A stretch of 64,000 nucleotides of DNA from Escherichia phage vB-Eco-KMB37. Position 1 is the stretch's first letter; each line of letters begins with the position of its first letter. The notes below the pieces were generated by a model. It saw only the letters and a program-made list of their open reading frames with translations, made no database searches and was not told the DNA's origin. The stretch lies in the sequence record OR525700; one strand, given 5' to 3'. The position numbers and the translations under genes are program-made. Shown piece by piece: positions 2,323-60,973 of the stretch.

Positions 2323-2755
2323 ATTTACAAATGCTTTTCAATTCTGTAATTGAATCTGCTATGGCTAATAACCGTTCAGAACCTTCAAACAATTCTGTAG
2401 CAAAATCTGTTTTAAGCCCATAACAGAATACAGGAATATCGTAATTATCTACCACATCTCCAAGAATGTCAACCATATCTTTAGTTAGGAATTGTGATTC
2501 GTCCACAAATACTGCATCTACTGGATTTTCTTTAAGTTGTGTATAAATTTCCAGCATATCTTCTTTTGTTTTAACTGGTTTTGCTTCCTCTTTAATACCT
2601 ATCCTAGAAGCAATAGCACAACCAGATCTGGTATCTAAAGCTGAAGTTAAAAGAAGAACTTTCATATTTCTTTCTTTATAGTTCCAAGCTGTTTGTAGCA
2701 GATGTGTGCTTTTACCACTGTTCATCGGACTATATCGGAAATAAAGTTTAGCCAT
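2192..2755 (-). CDS. tdk: Thymidine kinase
   Basis: P-loop SPMNSGKST near N-terminus, VFVDESQF, C-terminal Cys cluster CKCG...CRKC; 187 aa is typical TK size. Confidence 0.85.
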   Translation of the reverse strand: MAKLYFRYSPMNSGKSTHLLQTAWNYKERNMKVLLLTSALDTRSGCAIASRIGIKEEAKPVKTKEDMLEIYTQLKENPVDAVFVDESQFLTKDMVDILGDVVDNYDIPVFCYGLKTDFATELFEGSERLLAIADSITELKSICKCGRKAIFNARLIDSKEQIVIGGEDIYETMCRKCYNRRNNASSM

Positions 2756-2800
2756 ATTTTCTCCTCTAACGCTCCCATTTGTGGGAGCGATAATACTTTA

Positions 2801-3376
2801 TTATTTCTCTTCGTCAAGAAGAATTTTTACTATTTGTTTTCTTCGCTTACTTACTGTACTTTCTGGTGAAATTCCGCGCTTCGTTAGCCAATTTTTATCC
2901 TTTTTAGACTGGCATAAAGCTATCGCTTCCTTCTCCGCTTTTGCTTCCCTGAATGTCATATCGTGCTTGTCAGCATAAGCCAGGATAGCGTTACACTGCT
3001 TACAAACTACACGCAGGTCGTCTTCTGTTACGTACAATAGGCGTAAAACAAAACTTGGGATATCTTCATAACAGGTTAATGTACCTGCTGCATTAATGTG
3101 GTCTACTTGAAAGTCTTTCATACCTCCTGTATGTCCACACAATTCACATTTACAATTCCAAACCTGTTTCGGTTTGCCTGTTTTCTTATCTAAAACTACA
3201 TTGCCATCTTTATCCAACCTATCGGCTTTAAATCGTACAGATTGGATCTTTTTTATCTTATTCGGGTGTCTCACCCATGCTTTCCTTAAGCAACCCCTTA
3301 AATATGTATAAAAGGCTGCTTGAGTTTTCCAAGGTGTTCCATCTCCCCAAATAACTTTAGGTTCTTTATTTTCCAA
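2801..3376 (-). CDS. HNH homing endonuclease
   Basis: CKCELCGH...DHINAAG...CKQCN His-Asn-His/zinc motif; free-standing between metabolic genes. Confidence 0.7.
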   Translation of the reverse strand: MENKEPKVIWGDGTPWKTQAAFYTYLRGCLRKAWVRHPNKIKKIQSVRFKADRLDKDGNVVLDKKTGKPKQVWNCKCELCGHTGGMKDFQVDHINAAGTLTCYEDIPSFVLRLLYVTEDDLRVVCKQCNAILAYADKHDMTFREAKAEKEAIALCQSKKDKNWLTKRGISPESTVSKRRKQIVKILLDEEK

Positions 3377-3560
3377 TAGTGCTCACCTTTTTAGCTACAT
3401 AATCTCCAGGTGGAATGTTATATTTAAAGAAAAGCATACGGTCTAAACCAGCCTTACACATATTTTCTGGGATTGTGATTGTATATAGGAGTTTATCTCC
3501 GCGTTTATTGTATATTTTATATACTTCACCCTCTCCGTATTGTTTACCGTGAGAAGCCAT
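3366..3560 (-). CDS. Hypothetical small protein
   Basis: 64-aa ORF in the co-directional gene string. Confidence 0.3.
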   Translation of the reverse strand: MASHGKQYGEGEVYKIYNKRGDKLLYTITIPENMCKAGLDRMLFFKYNIPPGDYVAKKVSTIGK

Positions 3561-3945
3561 CTACACTCTCCTTCAATTGTTCAATAGCATCTGCTGCTTC
3601 AATATACTTACCTTTATACATTGCTTTTAAAGCCTTACGAACAAGATCATCGTCTGTATATAAATCAATTAGTTGATTAGCTAACTCAATTTTTACAGGA
3701 TTTTTTAAGTTAGGGTAGGCTTCATACAACATATTGTAATACTTATCACTTAATTCTTTTTCAATATGAATAACGTGAATCGCTTTGTTTAGGTTGATCA
3801 CACGATCACCTTTGTTTCGACAAGCATACTTAGCTAACTTAGTGAAACAAGGAGTTGCACCAATTAGATATGCAAGTTCCAAAGGTTGCATACGCATACG
3901 TTTGTAGTGATCACCATCAATTTGAATATCCAGTGCTGTAGTCAT
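3544..3945 (-). CDS. Hypothetical protein (DUF3310-like GDHY motif)
   Basis: N-terminal IDGDHYKRMRMQP...KY.CR pattern recalled from phage DUF3310 proteins. Confidence 0.4.
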   Translation of the reverse strand: MTTALDIQIDGDHYKRMRMQPLELAYLIGATPCFTKLAKYACRNKGDRVINLNKAIHVIHIEKELSDKYYNMLYEAYPNLKNPVKIELANQLIDLYTDDDLVRKALKAMYKGKYIEAADAIEQLKESVDGFSR

Positions 3946-3959
3946 AAATCCTCCAAAAA

Positions 3960-3985
3960 TAAAGGGGCTTTCGCCCCTTTTTATT
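3960..3985. terminator. Bidirectional-looking intrinsic terminator hairpin
   Basis: AAAGGGGC-TTTC-GCCCCTTT hairpin flanked by an A-run and a T-run. Confidence 0.5.
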
Positions 3986-4946
3986 AAATTCCAATAACAG
4001 TGTTTACACGCTTCTCTTTGCTACGTAAATTAACACGTCCACGAGACAGGCTATTACATGATGTGCATCTTAGCACTTGGAATGTACTAACCGCTGTTGT
4101 GTAAACCTTACCAGGAACAACTTCAAGGTGCTCTTTACCGCAACGAGGACAACGAAGTTTTTCATCGTCATAGAATGCAGATACGTTAGGATGTTGTGGA
4201 ATCCATGCACGAAGTTTGATGTAAAGATCTCTAAGAGAAACAACATCACCATCGTTGTATGTTTGCATACGGAAGAAGGCATGTCTATCTCCTTCACAAC
4301 ATGCTTTCCACAAAGGAAAACCTTCATTATCAAGTTTAAAGTTTTCTGTATCAAAATACAGACACATTTCTTTAAGCGCATTAGAAGGTAGTGCAAACTG
4401 CTTCTTAGCTGCCTTGAGTGTATCAATTACAACATAATGTGATGGTGGCTCCATACCGTGAAAAGCAAAACGTTGGTTAATATAAGCCTTATCAAACTTA
4501 ATTCCGTTGTGCGCGATCACAATATCTGCATCGTCAAGCAAGTGCCAGAGATCTTGACATAATTCCCAATCATCTGTATGATCTATGTCAAACAAAGGGT
4601 AATTGCTAAGGTTCTTACCTTCTACTTCCCCTGTTTCTAAATCAGCAGATGAATAGGAAAGCAAGTAACCTCGACGAATAACTTGTTCAGGTGCAATAAA
4701 GGCTTTGAAACGTGAGAAGCTATACACAATCTCCGGTGCTGTCTCTACGTCAATAATTTTAATTACTGGCCCACCTTTATCTTGCGGAGCACCGCGATGT
4801 GGTGAATTTACACGAGCTAAGTAATCATTTACTGTGCTCTTCTTAGTAGAACTTCCCAACACCTCTTGTGCAATCTTACGCGAAGAATAACCTTGTGCTT
4901 TCATAGATACAATCAAGGCTTTCTGTTCGTCTGTTAATTTACTCAA
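3984..4946 (-). CDS. DEDD-family 3'-5' exonuclease with N-terminal HTH and C-terminal zinc ribbon
   Basis: IIDVETAPE (Exo I) and IAHNGIKFDKAYI (Exo II/III-like) motifs; N-terminal sigma-region-4-like HTH; CPRCG...CTSCN at C-terminus. Confidence 0.6.
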   Translation of the reverse strand: MSKLTDEQKALIVSMKAQGYSSRKIAQEVLGSSTKKSTVNDYLARVNSPHRGAPQDKGGPVIKIIDVETAPEIVYSFSRFKAFIAPEQVIRRGYLLSYSSADLETGEVEGKNLSNYPLFDIDHTDDWELCQDLWHLLDDADIVIAHNGIKFDKAYINQRFAFHGMEPPSHYVVIDTLKAAKKQFALPSNALKEMCLYFDTENFKLDNEGFPLWKACCEGDRHAFFRMQTYNDGDVVSLRDLYIKLRAWIPQHPNVSAFYDDEKLRCPRCGKEHLEVVPGKVYTTAVSTFQVLRCTSCNSLSRGRVNLRSKEKRVNTVIGI

Positions 4947-5977
4947 TGTTCCTCCTGCTCTGAAATATATGCTTGTAGCATACTTTCAAAAGTTGTTTCA
5001 TCATTCGCCCAACGTTTCATATATACCAACTGAAAAATTGTCTCTATCCATTCATCAGTTGTCATTTCTACTTCTTCACCATCCCAAGAAGTAAATTTAA
5101 CGCCGTCTGGGAACCATTCATAATACTGATCTTTAACTGTCTGAAAAAGTTCAGCCTGTGTTTTACATTTGGAAATAAGATTAAAGCAAGTAATATCTCC
5201 AAACTTAACATCGAAATCTTGGTAAGGTCGAATACTATCTGTCTTATCGCCCATTAGCATTTGATAAGCTAACCAGTAACTACCCCAACCCTTAACTTCT
5301 TTTTTCTTACCTTTTTCTACGATCCAGATATCACCGATAGATTCATCAATCAGAATAACACAAGGATTTTTATAAACACCATCCTCTTTATAAAAGTTAA
5401 AGAGTAAACTCGGTGTGTGTAAGCTATCTTTGTCGATAGATGCTACAATATGAGAAAACTTACCAGTTTCCTTGTAGGCTTTATACCCTGCATATCCATA
5501 GATTTCTAAAGCATCATCTGCCTCAATACCAGTAACAACGTCACCGTTATGTTTTTCAACTAGATAATCTTTAGTATCTGATAATTGGATTGGTCTTAAA
5601 TCTGATCGCTCTGATTTATATTCTTTTGGCATTTTGAAAGAATGCCGGAAGGTTTTTCCTACCCCGATGACACCGCAATACTTTTGAAGTTTTAGGTGAT
5701 CCACCATCTGGGTTATTTTTGTCTTTGCAGCTTGAAACGTAAAAGAAATATTCTCTGGGACTATTTGAACATCTTTTATTTCAAAATCTTCTTTGGAGAA
5801 CAACTTCTTACCAGCAGCTTCGCGTTGCGCGTTAAGTGCTCCTAACCATCCTCCAATATTTTTTGAAGATTTACCCCAAAAATCTGTTCTTGTTTCAAAC
5901 TCTTTTACATTACCGGAAGCCTTGTGTACAGCGTGGATTTTTCTTTGTTCTAAAGCTGAAGACGCTTGGAACGCCAC
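4943..5977 (-). CDS. Putative FEN-like 5'-3' exonuclease
   Basis: GIEADDALEIYGY and VASIDKDSL motifs resemble the Pol I 5'-nuclease GYEADD / SGDKD signatures. Confidence 0.45.
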   Translation of the reverse strand: MAFQASSALEQRKIHAVHKASGNVKEFETRTDFWGKSSKNIGGWLGALNAQREAAGKKLFSKEDFEIKDVQIVPENISFTFQAAKTKITQMVDHLKLQKYCGVIGVGKTFRHSFKMPKEYKSERSDLRPIQLSDTKDYLVEKHNGDVVTGIEADDALEIYGYAGYKAYKETGKFSHIVASIDKDSLHTPSLLFNFYKEDGVYKNPCVILIDESIGDIWIVEKGKKKEVKGWGSYWLAYQMLMGDKTDSIRPYQDFDVKFGDITCFNLISKCKTQAELFQTVKDQYYEWFPDGVKFTSWDGEEVEMTTDEWIETIFQLVYMKRWANDETTFESMLQAYISEQEEH

Positions 5978-6069
5978 TTGATCGTAGTCTATTGCAAGAA
6001 TTGTGTTCTCGTCAACATATTTGTGCAGGTCTTCCGGTTGGATTAAAATGTAACCGCTAATATTACCTC

Positions 6070-6282
6070 CTATTCATCATCTGAACTCTCTGTTGAGAAT
6101 GTTCGTGTGTAGGGACACTGACGACTTGCAGAAACCTCTATAACCTTGTCGTACATACCGTTAGAGTAAAAACAGTATTTTGTACTTCCAGAAACTTGTT
6201 CTCCAGAATTAATTAAAGTTATTTGACCAGCATAAGAATAAGAACTGATTACTAAAAGTAAACCGACAAGAAGTTTTTTCAT
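6070..6282 (-). CDS. Small secreted protein (signal peptide)
   Basis: MKKLLVGLLLVISSYSYA signal-peptide-like N-terminus; 70 aa with two Cys. Confidence 0.4.
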   Translation of the reverse strand: MKKLLVGLLLVISSYSYAGQITLINSGEQVSGSTKYCFYSNGMYDKVIEVSASRQCPYTRTFSTESSDDE

Positions 6283-6357
6283 TGGTGTGTCTCCTTAAAA
6301 GCCCACCTAACTAAGTAGGTAGGCATATTAACACATATTAAATTAGTAAGTCAAGTA

Positions 6358-7263
6358 TTATTTTTGAATAGTTGACTTGATAAGGTCTTGCATAATACCA
6401 CGGATTTCATTAAAGCACAGAAGGACAGATGCTTCAAAAGATCCTTCTTCGTCGTTAAAGTATTTAGGGAATTTAATACCACTCAACTTAAATTCTTTAT
6501 CAACAATAAAGTTAACGAAACCGTCATATTCCAGGCCAATGGCAACAACGTGCTTACCATCTTCCATAAGTTCTACTGCACGAGATTCGTAAAGGGATTC
6601 TTTACTCCATACAACCACACCTTCAGAATCTTCAAGTTTAATATAATTACCAAGAGTCAGTCGTTCAGCCTCATGTTCTTCTAAGATGGTATCGAAACCT
6701 TTAATAATGGCTTCTTCGTGTACACTAAACGGCAGAACTGGGAAAGTACCCAACACCTCACGAAGAAACACAGCAATATCTTCACTAATTTTCTTAGTAC
6801 CATTAAGAACGTAGGTAATACTGTTTTCAGTGTCTACAACAACATAGTTATAGAAATCATCTGCCTCTGTTTCTGGGAGCAGAGAAAACACGATATCAGC
6901 CTCAATTGCTTTTTTGCTTTCTTTGTCCAAGAAGAACTCTTTAGTAGGATTTGCAGCAATAAACTCTTGTTCCATCTCCTGGAGTTTTTCATTAAGAATG
7001 CGTTTAACTTTCTTCTTGTTAACTTTCTTAACAGACTGCCCTACTTTAATAACCTCTAAACCAGAGAACACTTTTACATAGGAACCATCATCTTCAAAAC
7101 GAACAAGACCAATGGTATGTGCTTGTTGCCCCTGTGCCACAACAAAATCCAGCGGTTTGTCTGTTACTGTGTTCAGTGCTGAAATAGACAGACCATCACC
7201 AGAAATCAGGGTTACGCAAGATTTGAAATTTTTAGCAAACATAGTTTTCTCCTCAAATAACAA
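6358..7263 (-). CDS. RdgC-like recombination-associated protein
   Basis: Central segment ADIVFSLLPETEA...VVVDTENS...DIAVFLREVLGTFPVLPFS aligns by eye with E. coli RdgC; ~300 aa size matches. Confidence 0.5.
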   Translation of the reverse strand: MLFEEKTMFAKNFKSCVTLISGDGLSISALNTVTDKPLDFVVAQGQQAHTIGLVRFEDDGSYVKVFSGLEVIKVGQSVKKVNKKKVKRILNEKLQEMEQEFIAANPTKEFFLDKESKKAIEADIVFSLLPETEADDFYNYVVVDTENSITYVLNGTKKISEDIAVFLREVLGTFPVLPFSVHEEAIIKGFDTILEEHEAERLTLGNYIKLEDSEGVVVWSKESLYESRAVELMEDGKHVVAIGLEYDGFVNFIVDKEFKLSGIKFPKYFNDEEGSFEASVLLCFNEIRGIMQDLIKSTIQK

Positions 7264-7531
7264 CTACAAAATATTTTACACCATCATATTCGACAATATG
7301 ATCAGGATATTTAAATCCTTTATAAGATTTACCAAACAGACTAACAGCTTCATTAGCTTTGTTTTGCGGATTACTCAACCACTGTTCTTCTGTGTAAAAC
7401 TTAAATTCTGTTCTCTTACCTTCTTTTTCTAAACCAACAATTTCCTGTGTGATATCTTCAATACCTGCATTCTTCAAGGATTTGATTACCTGACGCAAAC
7501 CGTGTTTAAAGATATCTTCTGCTGTTAACAT
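7253..7531 (-). CDS. Hypothetical protein
   Basis: 92-aa ORF, co-directional and tightly packed. Confidence 0.35.
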   Translation of the reverse strand: MLTAEDIFKHGLRQVIKSLKNAGIEDITQEIVGLEKEGKRTEFKFYTEEQWLSNPQNKANEAVSLFGKSYKGFKYPDHIVEYDGVKYFVVVI

Positions 7532-44528: not shown

Positions 44529-46688
44529 ATGAAACAGGCTATTTTTACTGTAACTCGAAATACGAGAGTAAATGCCAGTTCATTCAGCTATAAGACCGTC
44601 GATGGAACGGCGGTCGCTGGTAGAGATTATGTAGCTAAACAGGGAACAGTAACGTTCCCTTCTGATGCAGATTCTGCTACTGTAGTGGTTGATGTATATG
44701 AACGTCCGGCAAACTCTTTAGATCTTTATTTTACTCTTGAGATTACTAGCATAAGTCAAAATAACATGATGATCAATGAAGAAATTCGTTGTGTTATTAC
44801 GACTAATCAATCGAATACGACCCCGCTAACTTGGCCTGTTGTGAAGTCTAGAATGTTTGATCCTAAGTTTTGGACAATAGATTCTCAAGCAACAGAAAGT
44901 TGTTCTATTATCTCTAATGGTGATTCTTTCACAGCAAGAATGGTTAATAGGACAGTGGCTGGTCTTGCTGGGATTATTTGGTCAACTTACGATAAATATG
45001 ATCACAAAGGATTAGGCTACCAAGAACATTCTGACTTAAGTAAAGAGAAACTTTGGTTTAAAATGGAACTTAGTCAAGGTGTTCCTGGATTAAAAGAAGA
45101 AAAATTAATACCATCCTTAACAGTGACACTGAAGGATGAAACAGTTCATTATGTATCTCTAAACTTTTATGCAGAAGAAGTTTCAGAGGATGGTAAAACA
45201 GCAACAATCAAACTAGATTTCTCAAATTTAAAATCTGGGCCAGAAAATGATATTGTTGTTGACACTACACAGATAGATAATATGTTCTTCTCCTTGATCT
45301 CAACGAGGTATCAAGAAATTGAAGATATTATTCCTGTAGACAATGAGGATCTTTCCTTTAAGTTTACCATACTGGAGCCTGATACTGGTTACAGTATGAT
45401 GAATATGGGTAATTTAAATGTTCCAGCACACACCATAAGAATGTGTACATCTTATGATGATATGTATAACCTGACCCCAGAGCGAGTTATTTCTAACACC
45501 TACAGATTAGGTTATAGGGATATGATTAACCACTATAATGGTATGTCACACTATTATCAGTTTAGTTGGGATGCTGGTTCTAATAAATGGGCTTTGAATA
45601 GAACAGAATATTTAAACCCAGCAACAGAAGCATGGTTTGATAATTTCCACGCTAATGCAAAAGCTATGGGCTACACAGTAATGAATTCCTTAAGTTTTGA
45701 ACTTATGAGTACAGTGTGTCCTGTAGAATGGGTACAACATACTTGGAATGATAATCTTGCTGCTACAGGTTATGAGCCACCAAGTTATGTTTTATCTCCT
45801 TCAATTGATGAAGGGATGGATTATTTACAAGGTGTAATAAATAAGATAGCTTCTATATCCGCTGCTAATGATCTTCCGGTTATTATTCAGGTTGGTGAAC
45901 CGTGGTGGTGGTATAACACAGCTACCAATCTACCGTGTATTTATGATTATACAACCAAAGTTGCATTTAATAATGAAACTGGATTGTATGCACAAGATGT
46001 TGGTACAGTTAAAAATTATAAAACTGGTACACCATATGATGAATATTATGCATTCCTATCTAAAACATTAGGACTGCGTGTTGCTAAATTTGCAACAGAT
46101 ACCAGATTAGCATATCCTGGAGCTAAAGTTACATTGTTACCATTTGTGCCATCCATTTTGGGTAATGGTATGATGGAGTTTGTTAACTTCCCTAAAGATT
46201 ATTATATCCCAGAAAACTTTGACTTTTATTGTTCAGAATGTTATGACTGGTTGTTGGAAGGTAAGATGGAAAGATCTTTCGACGCTATCACAATACCCAA
46301 TGAGCAACTAGGTTTTAGTTATGATAAGATACATTATCTTGCAGGGTTTGTTCCAGATGCAACTCTAGCACCATTATATGGCTTTGATCCTGAATCAGAC
46401 TACAGAACATACTTGTGGAAAATGATTATAGGTAATATTGTATTGAATGATCAGAAGTTTGTTGGTTTATATCAATACATATGGGCTTACCCACAAATAA
46501 TGCATGATTCAATAACTGTTCTTAATTCAAAATCCCAAGTGTTTTATATGGGTAATGTGCCTTTGAATTGCTACTTGCAAGATATCACTCTTAAACAGGT
46601 AAATGTTGAGATTGCCACTATAAGTGGAATTACATTAGCCACCAAATCTGGAGAAGATTTAGTAACAACACAAAAATTTTATATATAG
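44529..46688 (+). CDS. Large structural protein (719 aa)
   Basis: Size and position. Confidence 0.4.
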   Translation: MKQAIFTVTRNTRVNASSFSYKTVDGTAVAGRDYVAKQGTVTFPSDADSATVVVDVYERPANSLDLYFTLEITSISQNNMMINEEIRCVITTNQSNTTPLTWPVVKSRMFDPKFWTIDSQATESCSIISNGDSFTARMVNRTVAGLAGIIWSTYDKYDHKGLGYQEHSDLSKEKLWFKMELSQGVPGLKEEKLIPSLTVTLKDETVHYVSLNFYAEEVSEDGKTATIKLDFSNLKSGPENDIVVDTTQIDNMFFSLISTRYQEIEDIIPVDNEDLSFKFTILEPDTGYSMMNMGNLNVPAHTIRMCTSYDDMYNLTPERVISNTYRLGYRDMINHYNGMSHYYQFSWDAGSNKWALNRTEYLNPATEAWFDNFHANAKAMGYTVMNSLSFELMSTVCPVEWVQHTWNDNLAATGYEPPSYVLSPSIDEGMDYLQGVINKIASISAANDLPVIIQVGEPWWWYNTATNLPCIYDYTTKVAFNNETGLYAQDVGTVKNYKTGTPYDEYYAFLSKTLGLRVAKFATDTRLAYPGAKVTLLPFVPSILGNGMMEFVNFPKDYYIPENFDFYCSECYDWLLEGKMERSFDAITIPNEQLGFSYDKIHYLAGFVPDATLAPLYGFDPESDYRTYLWKMIIGNIVLNDQKFVGLYQYIWAYPQIMHDSITVLNSKSQVFYMGNVPLNCYLQDITLKQVNVEIATISGITLATKSGEDLVTTQKFYI

Positions 46689-50690: not shown

Positions 50691-51320
50691 ATGGCAGTGA
50701 GTGTTGACCATGTGACAACGTGGGATAGTATCAATGAAGATGTTAAAGACCTACTGATTGAAGATTTTAAATCTTCTCCGAACATTGTCAAACTACTCTA
50801 CATCATTTCTAGCGAAAAACAAAAGATAGATCAGGCAATGATCTATCTTGCCAAACACCGCTTAATCTCTACTGCAACTGGTAAGTATTTAGATCTTATT
50901 GGTGAAGAGATGGGAATGGAAAGAAATGGTGCTACAGATGAAGAGTATCGTACAATATTAAAAATCAGGGCTTATCGTGTTGCGTCTTCTGGTACGCGAG
51001 ATGATATCATTGATATGTTCGCTCGTTTTACAGGAACAGAAAAAGAAACGATCAATACATACGTTGGATTAAATAAAACATTCGACGTATTCTTTTATAA
51101 TTTGTGTCTACAATCCGATCAGGCAGTAGCACAGTTACTTAACGTTTTCCCGATCCTAAGTAGTTATCGCTTAGGTGCGAAAGCGGGTGCAGCCTTTGGT
51201 TTCACTTCCTATTATGCCACAACTCCACCTCATGGTATAGGTGGTTTAGGTTCTCTTTACACAGAGGCTGAAGGAGATGATACAGGGCGAATGACTATGC
51301 TGATAGCTCAAATAGAATAA
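50691..51320 (+). CDS. Baseplate/tail protein (gpI-like position)
   Basis: Position only. Confidence 0.35.
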   Translation: MAVSVDHVTTWDSINEDVKDLLIEDFKSSPNIVKLLYIISSEKQKIDQAMIYLAKHRLISTATGKYLDLIGEEMGMERNGATDEEYRTILKIRAYRVASSGTRDDIIDMFARFTGTEKETINTYVGLNKTFDVFFYNLCLQSDQAVAQLLNVFPILSSYRLGAKAGAAFGFTSYYATTPPHGIGGLGSLYTEAEGDDTGRMTMLIAQIE

Positions 51321-52887: not shown

Positions 52888-53229
52888 ATGGAGCTAACAG
52901 AAGTATGGGATATCGCTAAAGAGGCGATTATCCCTCTTATTGGCGTAATCTGGGTGGTCTTCAAACAGAAGATAGATGATATGGCAAGTGATTTGGATAA
53001 AATGGAAGACAAATACCGCGAACTAGAAAAGAAGTTGGTGTTTGTTGAATCCACTTATGCTACCAAAGCAGAACTTGCTCAAATGCTTAACCAGATCAAC
53101 TCTACATTAATGGCAAATAATACTGCCTTAGAACAGAAGATTGAAAAAATAATGGATTTAAAAAATGCTCCTGTTCAATTAATGTTAGAGGAGATTACAA
53201 AGCGCACACAAAGTAAGGACAAAAATTAA
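52888..53229 (+). CDS. Hypothetical protein with N-terminal TM-like helix and coiled coil
   Basis: EAIIPLIGVIWVVF hydrophobic segment then Lys/Glu-rich coiled coil. Confidence 0.35.
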   Translation: MELTEVWDIAKEAIIPLIGVIWVVFKQKIDDMASDLDKMEDKYRELEKKLVFVESTYATKAELAQMLNQINSTLMANNTALEQKIEKIMDLKNAPVQLMLEEITKRTQSKDKN

Positions 53230-55643
53230 TGGCGAATTTTCCAACATATCCTGCTACGACACTAGAACAAGGTGTTGATCTGGTTATATTCTCGTCTAAC
53301 CAGATGCATGATGTTATTAATGGGGATGCTACAGCAACTGTAGAAACCGAAACAGGTTTAATACCTACACTGCGTAAAGCACTTGTTGATAACTTCTTCT
53401 TTAAGAGTCCTGTTGCTTGGTCAGCAGGATCAACTGAAACTGTATTTAACCAGTTACGTTATTTTGAAAACGGTATCTTGAGTGGGTACTATTATGCCCC
53501 ATCTGCCACTACTGCTAACCCTGTACCTATGCAGGGTACACCTGTAGGAGACAGTAACTGGACTCTGTACGCTCTTAAAACTGAACAGTTAGCTTCAGAT
53601 GTGTATCCTTGGTATTTTAAAGGTGCTACAGGATATGAAACAGAAATCAGTCCTCCTTATATCTTTGATAATGCTATTGTCACCATTAACGGTGTAATTC
53701 AGATTCAAGGTGAAGCATTTACTATCAAAGATAGTAAAATTATTCTGGCAGAACCATTAGGTTTAGATCCGTCTACTGGTCTACCTAACAAATTGTTTGC
53801 TTTTATTGGTAAAACAACAGCCTCTACTTCTTACGTAGAGAAAAACCTTTTGTCATCTACCACTGGTGCAGCAATGGTTGGTCTTCCATCTGGAGGCAAC
53901 CTGTTACAAGCTCAATACTTTGTAACGCCTGAGCAGTTTGGTGCAATTGGTGATGGAGTTACCGATGATACTCAAGCAATTTTAAAAACCATTACTTTCG
54001 CTAACACGAATAACATTCAAGTACGTGCAGATAAGAATTATAGATTCACAAGCTCAATTGCTATGTCTGGTATTCGTTGGTATGGAGGTACATTCACTGG
54101 TAACGGTGGAACAATGATTTCTACTGTATCCTGTTGGATGGAAAACGTTCGCTTTGAAAAATGTTATGTTAAGATGTTAGGTGGCGATTGCCGATTCTAT
54201 CGTAATATCTTCTCCAATGCAACATCTACAGCAGCATTCTTAATGCAAGCAATGACAAGTGAAGGTACGTTGGACTTCAGTTACAACGAAATGTATGGTT
54301 GTAAATATGCGATCCTGCAACAAGGTACTGGAGAAGTAATGACCTACGGGCGTTACTCTAACAACTATATTCACGATATCAAAGGTGATGCTATTGAACT
54401 TAACGTAGTTCAAAAACACTACACTGAAGGTTTGATTATCGAGAATAACCACATTGCTAACGTAGATGCTTCTGGACAAGGGGCAAACTGGGGTATTGGT
54501 ATTGGTGTAGCAGGTAGTGGCCCATATGGTGTTGATGTTCCTGATTCACAATATGTACGTAACTTCAGTATCGTTGGGAATAGGGTTTACAATTGCCGTC
54601 AATGTTTACACGTTGAAATGGGTAAAAACTTCACGATACGTGATAATGAAGTTTATCCTAACACAGCAGTTTCAACAGGTACAGGTTTAACTACTTGTGG
54701 TGTTGCATTATACGGATGCCAAGATTTTGAAGTTGATGGTTTAACTGGTTATCTGCTTAATGATCCGTCTGTTTCAACACGCATGGTCTTTATTGATTGG
54801 GGTGTTAACAGTGGAAGATATGCGGGGCCACCAATTAACTTTACAATTAAGAATTTGGATATTCCAGAATCTTCAATTGAGATTGCAACATCTGGATCAG
54901 ATGCTTGGGAAAACTCTACAATTGTTAGTAACATCAATTGTAATGTTTTTAAATGGCGTGGGCTACCATCTAGCTCTACTTTTAATAATATTCGTTGCCG
55001 TAGTATTGACTTTATTGGTCAACACGGAAGCGGAGAAGGAAGTGGTGGCGGTTTCTATACTCGCAGCCAATTCACGTATATGAAGTGGGTAGGATGTACA
55101 GCACTTAGCGGAGATGAAACAACAGTTTCTTTTGCTAAAATCTACACTGATCGTTGCGATCAGGTTGGAAATAACTTTGGTGTTCCAACTGCTGTTGATG
55201 GTACAGGTCATCGTGGGCCAGTTTTAACTACTATTTCTGAACAATATTTTACAGCTTATGATGAATTCCCAGGTGGGCGTGAATTCCCTACTGGAACAGT
55301 TATTCATTGTGCAAGCGGTAAAAAACATGTTGTTACAGTAGGTGGTGCTTTCTTTAGTGCCAACGAGAAAATAAAAGCAACTGTTACAGGTCAAACCTAT
55401 CTACAGTCTAATGCTTTAAACTGGGCTAGTAATGGCTACGCTAAAGCAGCAGGTACTAAGATTGTTATTCCAGGTGCAGGTGCAAATGGCGGCGATCTTG
55501 TGACAACTATAGCACGTGCTACATATGTGACAAATAGTTTGTACACAATAGATATTGCAGATCCAATTGTAACACCTACAGCAGAGAATACACAAATCAA
55601 AGCTCTGAACCCTGTTACTTTTGTTACTGTCAATAATGCTTAA
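53229..55643 (+). CDS. Tail spike with parallel beta-helix (pectate-lyase-like) domain, putative depolymerase
   Basis: Repetitive N/G/V-rich beta-helix-like segments (NNHIANVDASGQGANWGIGIGVAG...VGNRVYNCRQCLHVE...RDNEVY); 804 aa. Confidence 0.55.
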   Translation: MANFPTYPATTLEQGVDLVIFSSNQMHDVINGDATATVETETGLIPTLRKALVDNFFFKSPVAWSAGSTETVFNQLRYFENGILSGYYYAPSATTANPVPMQGTPVGDSNWTLYALKTEQLASDVYPWYFKGATGYETEISPPYIFDNAIVTINGVIQIQGEAFTIKDSKIILAEPLGLDPSTGLPNKLFAFIGKTTASTSYVEKNLLSSTTGAAMVGLPSGGNLLQAQYFVTPEQFGAIGDGVTDDTQAILKTITFANTNNIQVRADKNYRFTSSIAMSGIRWYGGTFTGNGGTMISTVSCWMENVRFEKCYVKMLGGDCRFYRNIFSNATSTAAFLMQAMTSEGTLDFSYNEMYGCKYAILQQGTGEVMTYGRYSNNYIHDIKGDAIELNVVQKHYTEGLIIENNHIANVDASGQGANWGIGIGVAGSGPYGVDVPDSQYVRNFSIVGNRVYNCRQCLHVEMGKNFTIRDNEVYPNTAVSTGTGLTTCGVALYGCQDFEVDGLTGYLLNDPSVSTRMVFIDWGVNSGRYAGPPINFTIKNLDIPESSIEIATSGSDAWENSTIVSNINCNVFKWRGLPSSSTFNNIRCRSIDFIGQHGSGEGSGGGFYTRSQFTYMKWVGCTALSGDETTVSFAKIYTDRCDQVGNNFGVPTAVDGTGHRGPVLTTISEQYFTAYDEFPGGREFPTGTVIHCASGKKHVVTVGGAFFSANEKIKATVTGQTYLQSNALNWASNGYAKAAGTKIVIPGAGANGGDLVTTIARATYVTNSLYTIDIADPIVTPTAENTQIKALNPVTFVTVNNA

Positions 55644-55685: not shown

Positions 55686-57647
55686 GTGATTTTAACACGT
55701 CCAAATAGTGCCATTGCAGACATGGTAGAGTCTCGCTATAGAAAGCGTAGAAGTTTTGCAAGTGGTTTTACCTTAAGAGATGCTCGTGAAGCATTGCTCT
55801 TTGAAACTGACGGTAACTACTATCAGTGGAAAGGTTCTCTACCTAAAGTTGTACCTGCTAACTCTACTCCTACATCTACTGGAGGGATTTCAGATACAGC
55901 TTGGAAAAATGTGGGTAATGCAGATGACATTGCTCAAATAGAATCAGAATTAGATGCTATTGAAGCTGAAATTGAAGATCTTAGAGAATCCATTCCAGAA
56001 GCTGGTAAATCAGCTTACCAGATTGCCGTAGACAATGGTTTCCAAGGTACTGAGACAGACTGGTTGGCTTCTTTAAAAGGTGATCCAGGTGCTCCATTAA
56101 AGCTGCTAGGGACGCTATCTAATACCAACCAATTACCTACAACTGGAAACAATGCAGGAGATGCATGGATTGTAGGCGAGAATATGTATGCTTGGGATGG
56201 TACTGCTTGGAGAAAAGTAAACTCACAGGGGCCAGAAGGTAAATCAGCTTATCAAGTTTGGCTTGCAGCAGGAAACCAAGGTACAGAACTAGATTATCTT
56301 GCTTCAATTAAAGGTGATAAAGGGGAGCCTGGCCCAGAGGGGCCACAAGGTGTGCCAGGTAACAATGCTAATGGTTTTGATTACCAAGGTGCAGCTAATT
56401 CCGTTTCAGATCTTCCTTCTGCATCTCCTGGAAACACATCTCAAGCATGGAGTATTGGTACATATCTATACGTGTCAAACGGTGTAGAATGGATCAATAT
56501 GGGCGCTATAGTGGGGCCAAAAGGAGATAAAGGCGACAAAGGAGATAAGGGTAACACTGGTGATTCTGCTTATCAAGTCTGGTTAAATGCTGGTAACGTT
56601 GGTACTATTGACGAATATATTGCCTCTCTGAAAGGAGAAAAAGGTGATAAGGGAGACAAGGGTGATCAAGGTGAGCAGGGTATACAAGGCTTGACGGGGC
56701 CAACTGGTGCAGGGTTGACCATTATTGATATTCTGACTGACACTTCTGAACTACCACAAACTGGAGAAGATGGTGATGGTTATCTGATCAATAATGAACT
56801 TTGGGTTTGGTTGCAAGGAGCCACACAGTGGACAAATGTTGGTCGTTTAGCTGGTACTCCAATCACTGCAAAAGGACACGTTGCGTCTGCAAGTGCACTT
56901 CCTCCTACATCCAATTACGGTGATGCTTATCTGACGGAAGATACAGGTCATCTTTACATTTACACCTATGATGAACAAACTCAAACTGCTGAATATGTAG
57001 ATATGGGTAGTTTGAAAGGTGATAAGGGTGAGAAAGGTGACGCTGGTACTAATGGTACGGATGGTGCAACTTGGATTGTTAAAACAACAGATCCAATCTC
57101 TAGTGATGGTAAACAAGGGGATTATGCCTTTAATATCTCCACTGGCGAGGTGTTCTTAAAAACATCTGCAACTGCCTGGACTTCTCAAGGTACACTGCCT
57201 AGCATCACAGATGCACCTAGTGACGGTAAGATCTATGCTCGTAAAGATGGAACATGGGAAGAACTCACTAGTTCTGTAGATGGTCAAGATATAGTTCCAA
57301 CAAAAGTAACAACTAATTTTATAGAGGTTACAGCATACACCAACAACTCTGTTACAGGGGACTGGACACCTCCAGGAACACATAACATGAATGTGTTGAA
57401 TCTTACTGGTAACTCTACTATAAAAGCATGGCCTGGTGTCGAAGATAGCACAAAACCTAAACCATTCTCTGCAATAGTTTATCTTATCCAAGATGCCACT
57501 GGGGGTCATACTGTTACTTTAGATCCATCTTACAAAGTAATTGGTTCTAGTGATATTAATACAGATCCTAACGGAGTAACAATACTACAACTAACATATT
57601 GTGGTGTTGGTGATTACGTGGATGCTATTGTTGCTAAACGCACATAA
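55686..57647 (+). CDS. Tail fibre with collagen-like Gly-X-Y repeats
   Basis: GDKGEPGPEGPQGVPG, GPKGDKGDKGDKGNTGD, KGEKGDKGDKGDQGEQGIQGLTGPTG; a roughly 30-aa SAYQ...LASLKG motif repeated three times; GTG start. Confidence 0.6.
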   Translation: MILTRPNSAIADMVESRYRKRRSFASGFTLRDAREALLFETDGNYYQWKGSLPKVVPANSTPTSTGGISDTAWKNVGNADDIAQIESELDAIEAEIEDLRESIPEAGKSAYQIAVDNGFQGTETDWLASLKGDPGAPLKLLGTLSNTNQLPTTGNNAGDAWIVGENMYAWDGTAWRKVNSQGPEGKSAYQVWLAAGNQGTELDYLASIKGDKGEPGPEGPQGVPGNNANGFDYQGAANSVSDLPSASPGNTSQAWSIGTYLYVSNGVEWINMGAIVGPKGDKGDKGDKGNTGDSAYQVWLNAGNVGTIDEYIASLKGEKGDKGDKGDQGEQGIQGLTGPTGAGLTIIDILTDTSELPQTGEDGDGYLINNELWVWLQGATQWTNVGRLAGTPITAKGHVASASALPPTSNYGDAYLTEDTGHLYIYTYDEQTQTAEYVDMGSLKGDKGEKGDAGTNGTDGATWIVKTTDPISSDGKQGDYAFNISTGEVFLKTSATAWTSQGTLPSITDAPSDGKIYARKDGTWEELTSSVDGQDIVPTKVTTNFIEVTAYTNNSVTGDWTPPGTHNMNVLNLTGNSTIKAWPGVEDSTKPKPFSAIVYLIQDATGGHTVTLDPSYKVIGSSDINTDPNGVTILQLTYCGVGDYVDAIVAKRT

Positions 57648-57649
57648 TC

Positions 57650-57676
57650 AAAGCCCCTTCGGGGGCTTATTGTTTA
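57650..57676 (+). terminator. Rho-independent terminator
   Basis: AAGCCCC-TTCG-GGGGCTT hairpin then ATTGTTT. Confidence 0.5.
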
Positions 57677-57686
57677 AGGAGATTAA

Positions 57687-60506
57687 ATGTATCCTATTCC
57701 TTTATTTATGTCAACAACATCAGCTTCAGTAGTAACAGCTACATCTATAACTACTTCCTCTATTGGTATTGCAATAGTTGGTGGTAAAAAACAACTGACA
57801 TACACAGTTACACCCGAAGATGGTGCGTTATTTGATATAGCTTTTTCATCTTCAGATGATACCAAAATGGTTATAGATAATAGTGGTATGATGGAGTTTG
57901 TTGCCGAAGGTGGTTTTGATGCAATAATGACAGCTAAAAATAATTTAGGTGCTGTCTTAACTGATCAATCTGGTGGTTATGCTTCAGAATTAAGTGTGTA
58001 CACTGAAAGTCTATCGGCTATGGATGTAGGCACTACTCAACAGTTGGTTGCTACAATCAGTCCAGAAGGTGCTAAAGACCTTCCAGATATGGTAATTACA
58101 TACACCACAACAGATCCAGAAGTAGCTACTGTAAGCCCTACAGGGTTAATAACTGCTCTTAAAGATGGCGGTTGCCGTATAGGTTGTACTGCAACGTATC
58201 AAGGAACAGTTGTGGCCTCTGATAGTTCTTATTTAGGTGTTAATGCTATTCCTGTTATTTCTAATGTAACAGCCGTGGCAAACAGCTATGGAGACGTTCG
58301 TGTTGCTTGGGATGTAGCTGATCCGCTAGACGGTGATACTTATACTGTAGAAGTATTAGATTTAAGTAATAATAGTGTTCAGTGGACTACAACAACCACG
58401 AATACTTACGCCTACTTTGATATCTCTGACTCTATTCCTCTTTATGGGTTTGCTCCAACATACCTTAAAATTAGCGTTAAGAGCACCAAAGCAGCAGCCG
58501 TTATCTTTAATAACTCAATAGCTACAGATGATTCGTTCATTAAAGAAGTTATTGTCTTTGCTGGACAAGATAACGTAAATGCACACTTTACAGAACTATC
58601 TGGTGCAAATAAAGCAGCAATGGGTAGCACAACAGCCCGTAATGCATATGCTACGCAACGTGGTTTAGCAAATGCTGAAGTTCTTCCGTTAAATACAGCT
58701 TCTGGATCATCAGCAGCAGATAAATATGCTGACGATAAAGCTGGAACAGGTACACCAGATAACTACTGGTATGATCTGGATAACACAGCAGATGGGCCAT
58801 GCTTAACTAACTTTATCACTAAAGTCACACCTTATGCAAGTAAGGTTAAAGCAATTATTTGGGGACAAGGTGAAAATGATGCTGTATCAGCATCTTCGAC
58901 TGTTGCAGGTAGGTACAGTAACACTACACGTTACCATGATGCTACGATAGCTATCTTTGATAAGATGCGTACAATAGTTCCTGCTTCTCAAGCAAAAATT
59001 GTTTGGCAGATCCTAGGACGTTCTTATTTATATGGTGTAGAAGTTAATGGTGTGGATTGGCAGAAGTACAGAAATGTACAAAGAACCATCTCTACAGCAC
59101 GTGATGATGTTATCATTGGTTCTTGGGTAGATGGTGCTGAACGTTACAGTGGTTATGTTTATGAAGAAGGTATTGATGGTCGTATCCATTATATTTCTTC
59201 TGTATACCAAACAGCAGCTACAAAACTTGCTAAATCAGCAGCAGACGGTACAGACTTAACATCAACGTCACCTGTTTGGGTTGATATGGCTGTTCCAACT
59301 GGAGCAACAGCTACTTCCCAACCTAATCAAGATACAATTTTAGCATGGGATGCTCAAGGCTATAGTAAACACTACTTCCGTAATATTAACGTCTTAACAG
59401 CATCTGTAGTAGCTGAACAAACGCTTAATACGAACAGTTATACGTTTACCTATGCAGATCAAGTAGAACAATATGGTTTTGCGGCAGGAACTACTATATT
59501 TGATGTTGCATATTATGACGAAGCAAATGATGTGTTATCTCCTTTAGTACGTTTTAATGTTAACGTTACAGCAGGAACAGTGGAAGACAAACCTGTCGTG
59601 ATGGATTATGACTTGACGCAAGAAACTCTTCCATCAGGTGTTCAGGCTAATGGCGGGAACTCTTTTGCTCGTGCTTCTGGAGATATACTTGTAGCCACTA
59701 ACACCTTGGTTGCTCCGTTGGAGTATGTTGGTACTACCCCTGTAGGTAGACGTGTAACAGCTAACACAGCCTCACAAATTTTTGTCAACAACGCCTTAAC
59801 AAGTGCAAGCCCGTGGGTAAAGACCAACTTAACTGTTGCAGCTTCGTCTGATAACTCTCCGGCTGGAACTACTGCCAATGTATTCAAATTAACTCCGACT
59901 ACAACCTCTGGTAGTCATATCTTAACTGCAACATATACTAACGCGTACAACATATACGCCGGACGTAACTGGTCTGCCTCTGTTTTCTTGAAAGCGAACG
60001 GGATTACTAAGGCCAAACTAAGATTACAAGCAGGGACTGAAGTTAATGAGGGTACTTTTGATTTAGCAGCAGGCACATTCACAGGAAGTGAAGCTAATAT
60101 TATATCTATGGGCAACGGTTGGTATCGTGCTATTCTGCATAAAACAGGGATAGCCAAACAGTCCTCCATAAGTTTTGAAATAATTGCCTTGGATGCAACT
60201 GGTGCGGAGATTTTCGCTGGAGATGGTACTAGTAACCTTGCAGTTTGGTTGCCACAGCTTGAAGGTGCTCCTACAGGACAAACATCAAAAGCTGGATCGC
60301 CTTTTGTCTGCACATATCCTGGAAATTTAGGAGGAGTATCCTTCACTATACCAAGGAACGGACATACTGGCGTGGATGTTTACTATTCCAACGGAGACGT
60401 TGTTCGTGACGTATTCTCTGGTACGGCATCTACTTGGACAATAAACTACTCCAGCTTGTACGATTGGGGATCAGTCTTTATTACAGGTTTGAAATATTAC
60501 GACTAA
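57687..60506 (+). CDS. Large tail fibre with Ig-like (Big_2-type) repeats and an SGNH/SASA-like esterase domain
   Basis: Two Big_2-like N-terminal segments; esterase-like motifs VIVFAGQDNVNAHF and AIIWGQGENDAV (GQSN / WxQGExD pattern); 939 aa. Confidence 0.5.
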   Translation: MYPIPLFMSTTSASVVTATSITTSSIGIAIVGGKKQLTYTVTPEDGALFDIAFSSSDDTKMVIDNSGMMEFVAEGGFDAIMTAKNNLGAVLTDQSGGYASELSVYTESLSAMDVGTTQQLVATISPEGAKDLPDMVITYTTTDPEVATVSPTGLITALKDGGCRIGCTATYQGTVVASDSSYLGVNAIPVISNVTAVANSYGDVRVAWDVADPLDGDTYTVEVLDLSNNSVQWTTTTTNTYAYFDISDSIPLYGFAPTYLKISVKSTKAAAVIFNNSIATDDSFIKEVIVFAGQDNVNAHFTELSGANKAAMGSTTARNAYATQRGLANAEVLPLNTASGSSAADKYADDKAGTGTPDNYWYDLDNTADGPCLTNFITKVTPYASKVKAIIWGQGENDAVSASSTVAGRYSNTTRYHDATIAIFDKMRTIVPASQAKIVWQILGRSYLYGVEVNGVDWQKYRNVQRTISTARDDVIIGSWVDGAERYSGYVYEEGIDGRIHYISSVYQTAATKLAKSAADGTDLTSTSPVWVDMAVPTGATATSQPNQDTILAWDAQGYSKHYFRNINVLTASVVAEQTLNTNSYTFTYADQVEQYGFAAGTTIFDVAYYDEANDVLSPLVRFNVNVTAGTVEDKPVVMDYDLTQETLPSGVQANGGNSFARASGDILVATNTLVAPLEYVGTTPVGRRVTANTASQIFVNNALTSASPWVKTNLTVAASSDNSPAGTTANVFKLTPTTTSGSHILTATYTNAYNIYAGRNWSASVFLKANGITKAKLRLQAGTEVNEGTFDLAAGTFTGSEANIISMGNGWYRAILHKTGIAKQSSISFEIIALDATGAEIFAGDGTSNLAVWLPQLEGAPTGQTSKAGSPFVCTYPGNLGGVSFTIPRNGHTGVDVYYSNGDVVRDVFSGTASTWTINYSSLYDWGSVFITGLKYYD

Positions 60507-60508
60507 TA

Positions 60509-60540
60509 AAAAAGGAGCCATTAGGCTCCTTTTCTTTTAT
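60509..60540. terminator. Bidirectional terminator between convergent genes; first copy of a repeated hairpin
   Basis: AGGAGCC-ATTA-GGCTCCT hairpin then TTTCTTTT; near-identical copy at 61678-61700. Confidence 0.55.
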
Positions 60541-60541
60541 C

Positions 60542-60973
60542 TTAATCAGTGAAAATTACGCTTACATCTTCTTTAGAAAAGAGTTTATGATCTTCACCTT
60601 TTGTCTCAAGAGTTTCATACAGGCTAAGAAGTTCTGAAACATCTTTCTCTACCAGTTTCTTCAATGTTGCAATTTTCTGTTTGCGACTCTTAATACGTTC
60701 AGCTACAACCTTACGCTGGTATCCGGCAGTACGATAACCTGAGAAAGTTACACCAGTAAGGCTTGCAGTTACAGGATCGTAATGACGTTCAATCTGAAAC
60801 TTATTAAAAGGTACAGCGTCATCACGAATAATCTTACCGCCATTACTTACTTGACGAAGACCAGTAACTTGTTCCAGTCGTGCCATAGAAATCTTTGGAG
60901 ACAGACCAGAGTCCAGGTTCATACCATTGTTAATCAGTGCTTTCAGGGTGATTTTGCTGTTCAGTGTACTCAT
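60542..60973 (-). CDS. Hypothetical protein (start probably internal Met near 60922)
   Basis: 143-aa ORF whose longest form overlaps the methyltransferase 3' end by 44 nt. Confidence 0.4.
   Translation of the reverse strand: MSTLNSKITLKALINNGMNLDSGLSPKISMARLEQVTGLRQVSNGGKIIRDDAVPFNKFQIERHYDPVTASLTGVTFSGYRTAGYQRKVVAERIKSRKQKIATLKKLVEKDVSELLSLYETLETKGEDHKLFSKEDVSVIFTD

Follow-up and report, generated by a model that had tools for sequence, protein, structure and literature searches.

A SASA-type SGNH domain lacking the catalytic serine in a modular tail-associated protein of a phi92-like Escherichia coli phage

Does a phage tail protein that displays the sequence motifs of a carbohydrate esterase remove acetyl groups from its receptor, or has the esterase fold been retained for something else? 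The question is raised by an open reading frame (ORF) at positions 57687-60506 of a 64,000-nucleotide (nt) stretch of Escherichia phage vB-Eco-KMB37 (sequence record OR525700), which was analyzed as a whole and is referred to here as the window. An initial annotation, made from the letters of the sequence, placed this ORF exactly, as the ORF list confirms (plus strand, 939 amino acids, aa), and described its product as a tail fibre in which two Ig-like repeats are followed by an SGNH/SASA-like esterase domain, which suggested a receptor-modifying fibre, perhaps one that deacetylates O-antigen or capsule. The assignment of the domain stands: it is a genuine SGNH-fold domain of SASA type. The proposed activity is unsupported, the nucleophilic Ser having been replaced by Asp295, and the domain is probably not a canonical esterase. 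Our best explanation, to which we assign a probability of about 0.55, is an accessory, tail-associated protein in which a pseudo-esterase of SASA type has been kept to bind sugar.

Of the two motifs that had suggested an esterase, VIVFAGQDNVNAHF occupies aa 288-301 and AIIWGQGENDAV aa 389-400. Their resemblance to esterase motifs is not fortuitous, because relatives retrieved with the core of the domain show GQSN, QGExD and His motifs in the same columns: a phmmer search of 1.84 billion representative proteins with aa 271-560 (the core also used for structure modelling; aa 271-624 served for tblastn) found 78 relatives at E<=1e-3, of which 35 reach E<=1e-10. A word-indexed protein database, queried with the core and with a 13-sequence profile, yielded two near-identical fragments only. 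Two alignments were used in what follows, A1 comprising 13 homologues from a phage collection and A2 comprising 27 sequences trimmed from the phmmer matches. The Pfam comparison suggested as a check in the initial annotation does not by itself place the domain in SASA (PF03629): the direct scores of 14.3 bits for the full protein, a match spanning Block III only, and 16.7 bits for the core lie below the gathering score of 24.8. Four Ser-bearing relatives exceed that score, namely P0005 (31.9 bits; phmmer E to the core 6e-70), P0010 (30.8 bits; 2e-46), P0044 (48.6 bits) and P0050 (36.3 bits), so that membership in the family, as judged by sequence, is transitive only, by way of these homologues.

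Structure prediction was more informative. A model of aa 271-560 computed on A2 with AlphaFold2 (AF2) has a mean predicted local distance difference test score (pLDDT) of 94.1, a predicted template modelling score (pTM) of 0.89 and an alternating beta/alpha topology, and the predicted domain has the three-layer alpha/beta/alpha, flavodoxin-like fold with a parallel beta-sheet that typifies SGNH proteins. Compared by Foldseek, this model matched gp65 of phage N4 best (template modelling score, TM, 0.75-0.76; E ~1e-15), with dozens of SGNH carbohydrate esterases ranking next. Profile searches of the PDB gave weak sequence matches to 2APJ (E 0.0034) and 1ZMB (E 0.014) with A2 and no esterase with A1; sequence alone is thus marginal for an SGNH assignment, and it was the comparison of the modelled fold that decided it. 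One competing identity, the TIM barrel of non-contractile sheath proteins (PF23845), was ruled out, since that barrel is a separate domain lying upstream in P0005 and P0008 and the model is of SGNH type.

In SGNH enzymes catalysis requires a Block I Ser, located where strand beta1 ends, whose attack on the ester yields an acyl-enzyme; in the SASA family a Gln beside that Ser (GQSN), held by the Block III (H)QGE network, makes an inverted oxyanion hole, and the Asp partner of the Block V His is optional, NanS being without it (PMC9487903). The first motif of the window protein reads GQDN against the family GQSN, a difference that the initial annotation quoted without weighing. Alignment by HMMER superimposed the A2 consensus 'faGqSn' on LSGQSNMAG of 2APJ and MLGQSNMAG of 1ZMB, and 'ivWaQGEnDa' on VLWYQGESDV and ILWHQGESDS of the same two structures. 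In the model, Asp295 falls between strand beta1 (core residues 17-23) and the helix that starts at core residue 25, which is the position of the SGNH nucleophile (PMC9487903). The 78 relatives contribute 98 aligned stretches, of which 67 are occupied in this column: by Ser in 53, by Asp in four, by Ala in three and by other residues in seven. The four Asp-bearing stretches include the window type and the type found in phage Av-05; P0006, 48% identical, has Ala.

The remainder of the active site is largely preserved. Gln294, Gly340, Trp392, Gln394-Gly395-Glu396, Asn397, Asp398 and His501 are all retained, and at the sequence level the Gln beside the nucleophile position and the Block III QGE network are those of a SASA protein. 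Three Block III residues (W122, G125 and E126 in core numbering) are at least 90% conserved in A2. Gly340, in 'ASGSSAADK', agrees with the family consensus GSSAADK and is a candidate, by sequence, for the Block II oxyanion-hole Gly. The column of His501 is likewise at least 90% conserved in A2, and 48 of the 55 aligned domains without a gap there have His. The nearest upstream Asp lies at position -4 (DGRIH), outside the DxxH register, and is absent in the Av-05 type; DxxH itself occurs in distant relatives only. The initial annotation had named the lack of a catalytic Ser/His/Asp arrangement as the outcome that would count against it, and half of that outcome is seen: the Ser is lost and the Block V Asp is off register, while His501 and the SASA oxyanion-hole residues are kept. 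Compared with the SASA/CE6-type family at large (PF03629; for example 1ZMB, At4g34215 in 2APJ and E. coli NanS in 3PT5), the window domain differs in having Asp for Ser, in scoring below the Pfam gathering threshold, in placing the upstream Asp four rather than three residues before the His, and in being embedded in a phage tail protein between beta-sandwiches. Because of the Ser to Asp replacement, O-acetylesterase activity is predicted to be absent or non-canonical.

Comparison of the core with the phage collection by tblastn revealed three tiers: orthologues in Justusliebigvirus at more than 90% identity; proteins of phages Av-05, TH18 and 18-1-2 at ~49%; and, at 22-28%, the 'tail sheath and receptor binding protein' of N4-like podoviruses (N4 gp65 included) together with some siphoviruses of the Casjensviridae. 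No homologue of the core was found in the collection for rV5-like Vequintavirus or Phapecoctavirus phages. A neighbour-joining tree built from 48 domains unites the window and Av-05 (GGDN) types in one monophyletic Asp clade, sister to P0006 (GQAN), P0007 and P0008 (both GQSN) and nested within lineages that have the full QS, QGE and His complement, which argues that the loss of Ser is derived. The change from GQSN to GQDN thereby maps to the common ancestor of the Justusliebigvirus and Av-05-type proteins, and the SASA-type domain descends from active carbohydrate esterases. Decay has proceeded further in the Av-05 orthologue, in which three additional catalytic residues are lost. Its identity to the window protein is 45% in the four catalytic blocks and 48% over the whole domain; among Ser-bearing relatives, those nearest the window type show 48-58% in the blocks against 38-46% overall. 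Relaxed catalytic constraint following loss of the nucleophile would produce such a pattern in the aligned sequences.

These findings are most easily reconciled with a pseudo-esterase, because the accepted SGNH mechanism needs the Block I Ser for its acyl-enzyme. In this phi92-like myovirus the 939-aa product would be a late-expressed accessory protein that is associated with the tail and recognizes glycan, its parts arranged like beads on a string: a short peptide conserved at the N-terminus (MYPIPLF...), two Big_2 domains, a beta-sandwich, the SGNH/SASA domain, a second beta-sandwich and a mobile module of ~300 aa. The domain with Asp for Ser would keep its sugar-binding pocket and would serve as a lectin-like adhesion module that helps the phage adsorb reversibly to a surface polysaccharide, instead of taking off acetyl groups. 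A conceptual precedent is offered, as far as the titles of the PDB entries go, by CE2 esterases (2W9X, 2WAO), whose SGNH cleft also binds carbohydrate non-catalytically. These enzymes retain a Ser-His dyad and are of another SGNH subfamily than the window domain. Entries 2W9X and 9H4U (the latter described, by its title, as having a 'diluted triad') were themselves among the structural matches.

Several considerations weigh against the interpretation as a pseudo-esterase. All catalytic-site residues other than Ser are conserved in the window phage, and His501 is kept in both members of the Asp clade, which could mean that the pocket still does chemistry. The Asp is shared by two lineages that are only 48% identical and is therefore not simply drifting, and a carboxylate could in principle serve as nucleophile or general base. 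The tree is distance-based and rough, and association of the 939-aa protein with the virion is suggested by synteny and homology only; a search for virion proteomics, aimed at papers on phi92, PVP-SE1, BME3 and rV5, found none.

A first alternative, which follows the initial annotation, is an active carbohydrate O-acetylesterase, acting on O-antigen, capsule or another exopolysaccharide in the manner of gp63.1 of phage G7C, by a non-canonical route such as water activated by His501, with Asp295 serving as general base or nucleophile. The SGNH fold is of the true SASA family, the Asp persists across a divergence down to 48% identity, the Gln294, Gly340, QGE 394-396 and His501 set is complete, the depositors of phage ALITA named the product 'tail carbohydrate esterase', and unconventional SGNH triads do exist, as in the 'diluted triad' of 9H4U and in NanS, which is without a Block V Asp (PMC9487903). 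Nevertheless, the mechanism needs the Block I Ser, and substitution of those residues in Blocks I and III that form the oxyanion hole abolishes activity in SASA enzymes (PMC9487903). In addition, further catalytic residues, three in number, are missing from the nearest Asp-bearing orthologue, and Ala occupies the site in another close relative. We know of no SGNH enzyme with an Asp nucleophile, which likewise counts against activity. The G7C tailspike itself reportedly has the catalytic Ser, its deacetylation of O-antigen being said to have been demonstrated by Prokhorov et al. in 2017. It is also (PDB 4QNL) of a different SGNH subfamily, and its trimeric tailspike architecture is not evident in the window protein. 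On balance, an active esterase seems unlikely, though not implausible.

A second alternative originates in the relationship to N4, whose gp65 (structures 9LC0, 9YF4, 9YF5 and 9YFT) is the closest solved structure to the window domain. The core matches N4 gp65 twice by BLASTP (aa 429-603 and 720-1059), with repeated matches to 1093-1373 in gp65 proteins, and the A1 profile aligns to two tandem domains (aa 422-707 and 717-1004); the SASA-type domain is homologous to the two tandem central domains of this sheath and receptor-binding protein. The likeness covers both SASA-like and beta-sandwich domains, and the 939-aa protein has the gp65-like layout of central SASA-like domain followed by beta-sandwich. 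The N4 copies are, like the window domain, catalytically degenerate: copy B has Gln for Ser and Tyr for His, and copy A keeps the Ser and is truncated before Block V. Several copies in gp65 proteins of Achromobacter, Delftia and Pseudomonas phages retain both Ser and His. ORF 57687-60506 differs from N4 gp65 in having one SASA-like domain, Big_2 domains and a different C-terminal module, in belonging to a contractile-tailed phage, and in being without the NCTSP_N anchor and the TIM barrel (no Pfam match to PF23844 or PF23845 in this ORF).

These two missing domains are encoded elsewhere in the window, by ORF 44529-46688 (NCTSP_N 75.3 bits, TIM-barrel_NCTSP 274.8 bits). This companion has homology to N4 gp64 (tblastn E 3e-31), as well as to two segments in the N-terminal part of N4 gp65 (aa 55-115 and 356-416), and it is the counterpart of the Gp142-type fibre of phi92, a putative binder of the N4 glycan receptor (NGR). 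Both the NGR-associated domain and a GMSHY motif have been mapped to that fibre type, which was proposed as the NGR binder (preprint 10.64898/2026.04.02.716166), and Justusliebigvirus phages as well as N4 depend on this nfrA/nfrB/wecB-dependent receptor (PMC8669472, PMC11990801). P0005 and P0008 unite NCTSP_N, TIM barrel and SASA-like domains in single polypeptides, which implies that the myovirus holds the module set of the N4 sheath in two genes ~11 kb apart. P0005 in particular, a metagenomic protein of 2270 aa, carries a DUF2612 baseplate domain, NCTSP_N, the TIM barrel and two Ser-bearing SASA-like domains in one chain, and by its predicted domain content represents an 'unsplit' architecture of the set; a DUF2612-like protein of the window itself is encoded by ORF 50691-51320. 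The published 'glycan deacetylase' homology between N4 and Vequintavirinae (PMC8594841) was considered as a possible description of the 939-aa protein and rejected, since the S5F legend of that work refers to N4 Gp64 and the other fibre, that is, to ORF 44529-46688. Two further observations concern the N4 proteins themselves. Copy A of gp65 (aa ~434-602; locus L003, gp65 at 1844-5992) matches profile positions 14-177 only, that is, up to Block III, and the N-terminus of gp64 (aa 14-76, '...GIGQIHFN...'; locus L003, gp64 at 6025-7278) shows a weak alignment (E 0.076) with the stretch of the profile that covers Block V. Because copy A stops at Block III and the gp64 terminus resembles the Block V part, the first SGNH domain of gp65 may be completed in trans by gp64 and so be split across the sheath heterodimer.

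From this relationship it might be supposed that the 939-aa protein is a second component of NGR recognition, which with the Gp142-type protein would rebuild the gp64/gp65 set, its SASA-like pocket binding the ManNAc-based NGR polymer. Such a role would be compatible with the sugar-binding function preferred here, and it draws on the match of the core to both tandem domains of the N4 receptor-binding protein, on the joined domains of P0005 and P0008, the first two of which the window has in ORF 44529-46688, and on the receptor dependence common to Justusliebigvirus and N4. The 939-aa protein cannot, however, be the essential NGR binder, because NGR-dependent rV5-like Vequintavirus phages are without a homologue of the SASA-like core in the phage collection, and the GMSHY determinant lies in the Gp142-type protein; its candidacy as the NGR binder was downgraded on these grounds. 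Moreover, gp65-like SASA domains in Achromobacter, Pseudomonas and Delftia phages and in siphoviruses suggest that these domains track the module and not one receptor. We regard the proposed accessory role in NGR recognition as quite unlikely.

Third, an esterase cassette may once have been acquired and since have decayed, leaving a vestigial domain, or a vestigial gene altogether, that acts purely as a spacer or does nothing. The gene is in fact broken in some relatives. In phi92, gp152 and gp153 are pieces of one gene (locus L005, 8408-10070) which has lost 218 nt by deletion (aa ~199-272), is frameshifted again near aa 335 and ends at aa 628; in ALITA (locus L001, 12001-14820) an in-frame stop at codon 720 has led to annotation as two coding sequences (CDS). 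GQDN is still encoded in both broken genes. Since the gene is broken in these phages, absent in rV5-like phages and represented in phAPEC8 by a protein with an RCC1-like propeller instead, the 939-aa protein appears dispensable in some settings, and loss of the catalytic Ser, the further decay in the Av-05 type and the absence of the cassette from sister genera are all in keeping with a remnant. Against this, the gene is intact at 97-99% nucleotide identity in at least 18 records (most of its length being covered in 25) and is furnished with a good ribosome-binding site and terminator, the model is well packed (pLDDT 94), and every active-site residue other than Ser is kept in the window lineage; a purely vestigial state is accordingly improbable.

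No better prospects attend the broader proposal that the Asp-for-Ser domain is a dedicated site, be it a lectin pocket suited to an acetylated or ManNAc-type glycan (NGR, for example) or the centre of an enzyme that relies on carboxylates, operating with ORF 44529-46688 as a two-polypeptide version of the N4 gp64/gp65 machine; this we consider a doubtful conjecture. Least credible is a neofunctionalized enzyme in which Asp295, Glu396, Asp398 and His501 would form a carboxylate-based, glycosidase-like or lyase-like site for host polysaccharide, for the constancy of Asp in the clade and the clustering, by motif position, of acidic residues and a His at the former active site are offset by the loss of neighbouring pocket residues in the Av-05 type and by the lack of any precedent known to us for such a site in an SGNH fold.

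The remaining parts of the protein (Table 1) reinforce the picture of a modular assembly. The two Ig-like repeats of the initial annotation are borne out by a Big_2 match (PF02368; 50.5 bits against a threshold of 22.8), with PHROG 215/28902 matching as well. The first esterase-like motif does follow these repeats, as had been claimed, with an additional beta-sandwich intervening; that region, which is deleted in phi92 and has no Pfam match, is suggested by strand patterns in a single-sequence AlphaFold model of aa 190-939 with a low-confidence pLDDT of 37. Core positions 264-369, in the second beta-sandwich, match several places in gp65 proteins by BLASTP and show strands at core 268-286 in the AF2 model. 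The C-terminal module, for which Pfam gave no match over aa 631-939, shares 62% identity with the phAPEC8_00180 C-terminus and ~30% with Kagunavirus proteins encoded after the tape measure and with cyanophage virion proteins; in Kagunavirus fFiEco03 (locus L011, 2904-4274) the module lies within the protein encoded directly after the tape measure. Over its last ~90 aa the genus has different alleles, nucleotide identity with EmilieFrey-type phages ends at nt 2544 of the gene, and two alleles of the module (~96% and ~61% identity) were seen in Justusliebigvirus.

Exchange of entire modules is evident from the syntenic gene of phAPEC8 (locus L010, 2237-4912), which has in common the N-terminal peptide (MFPIPIF against MYPIPLF), the two Big_2 domains (the pair in the 939-aa protein being 63% identical to that of phAPEC8_00180) and the C-terminal module, and has an RCC1-like beta-propeller in place of the SASA cassette. 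The Av-05 orthologue, at 647 aa, ends after the second beta-sandwich. As modules are swapped in phAPEC8, cut off in Av-05 and broken in phi92 and ALITA, the 939-aa protein can be lost and amounts to a mosaic in which exchangeable modules for glycan recognition are set on an Ig-domain frame. No trimerization or anchor domain was detected in it, and the string of Ig-like, beta-sandwich and globular domains resembles the monomeric gp65 of N4. The name 'tail fibre' accords with the position of the gene at the end of a tail-fibre and tailspike cluster and, for want of such a domain, is a label still to be proven.

The window belongs to a Justusliebigvirus (phi92-like, Stephanstirmvirinae) myophage of E. 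coli, and the gene is 97-99% identical at the nucleotide level to those of Escherichia phages ALITA, inny, Paula, alia, phiWec187 and PaulScherrer, all of that genus. Its orthologues include A0A6B9X4H6 of alia, the 'tail carbohydrate esterase' and 'tail protein' pair of ALITA and the gp152/gp153 fragments of phi92, and deposited names range over 'hypothetical protein', 'tail protein', 'lateral tail fiber protein' and 'non-contractile tail sheath' (KKE7M) in addition to the esterase label of ALITA. It is the final gene of its cluster, and the terminator-like hairpin that follows it lies at the junction of the late plus-strand block with the convergent early/middle minus-strand block; a terminator is annotated at the corresponding place in the Paula, PATM and phAPEC8 records. 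Genes at 92-97% identity also occur in ~146-151 kb genomes labelled as Campylobacter phages C3 and A145 (MG065656.1, MG065645.1), Klebsiella phage ZCKP1 and Serratia phage KKP_3264 (MH252123.1, OK210077.1); these host labels may reflect a very broad host range, or mis-attribution or contamination. Immediately upstream, the fibre encoded at 55686-57647 has collagen-like G-X-Y repeats interspersed with repeated units of ~50 aa and a weak Fibritin_C-like match (E 0.004). Between this gene and the ORF lies a 7-bp GC-rich hairpin (AAGCCCCTTCGGGGGCTT, 57651-57668) followed by a poor T-run, which could attenuate read-through and so lower expression of the last gene relative to the fibre.

Table 1. 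Positions, in window coordinates, of the gene for the 939-aa protein, its domains and active-site residues, and associated features
Feature	Position	Strand	Basis
CDS, 939-aa modular tail-associated protein	57687..60506	+	ORF list, ATG start
Ribosome-binding site AAGGAG, 5 nt 5' of ATG	57676-57681	+	sequence reading
Two Big_2 bacterial Ig-like domains (aa ~10-190)	57714..58256	+	Pfam PF02368, E 2e-13, 2 stretches
First beta-sandwich linker, putative, FN3-like (aa ~192-280)	58260..58526	+	strand pattern in low-confidence model
SGNH-fold SASA-family domain without catalytic Ser (aa ~283-525)	58533..59261	+	
Asp295 codon (GAT), in Block I nucleophile Ser column (GQDN for GQSN), preceded by Gln294	58569..58571	+	
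SASA Block III, W392-G-Q394-G395-E396-N397-D398	58860..58880	+	alignments
His501, Block V His, in loop before last helix	59187..59189	+	alignment; topology from model
Second beta-sandwich (aa ~538-630)	59298..59576	+	homology to repeated C-terminal beta-sandwich domains of N4-like gp65 proteins
Mobile beta-rich C-terminal module, unknown fold (aa 631-939)	59577..60503	+	homology; no Pfam match
Intrinsic-terminator-like 10-bp GC-rich hairpin (5 GC pairs) and T-run	60510-60533 (entire feature 60510..60543)	.	directly 3' of stop codon
Companion gene, 719-aa Calx-beta, NCTSP_N and TIM-barrel_NCTSP protein, GMSHY at aa 338	44529..46688	+	Pfam, homology
Colanidase-type tailspike, upstream neighbour	53229-55643		domain/family searches
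Collagen-repeat fibre with Tail_spike_N (TSP1/Gp66-type) N-terminus, phi92 gp151 orthologue	55686-57647	+	

The finding is of specialist interest and overturns nothing. Annotation already labels the gene 'tail carbohydrate esterase' in ALITA, and if the domain is non-catalytic, it would be an error for host-range models or engineering work to treat it as an enzyme that destroys the receptor, and the domain would stand as one more case of phages reusing an enzyme fold as a lectin. Should the dedicated site described above prove real, it would point to a glycan toolkit exchanged among podoviruses, siphoviruses and myoviruses. The homology to the central domains of gp65 represents a second and much larger region common to N4 and phi92-like phages, beyond the short gp142/gp65 domain already reported, and bears on how the 'Swiss-army-knife' adsorption apparatus of phi92-like phages is assembled from mobile modules.

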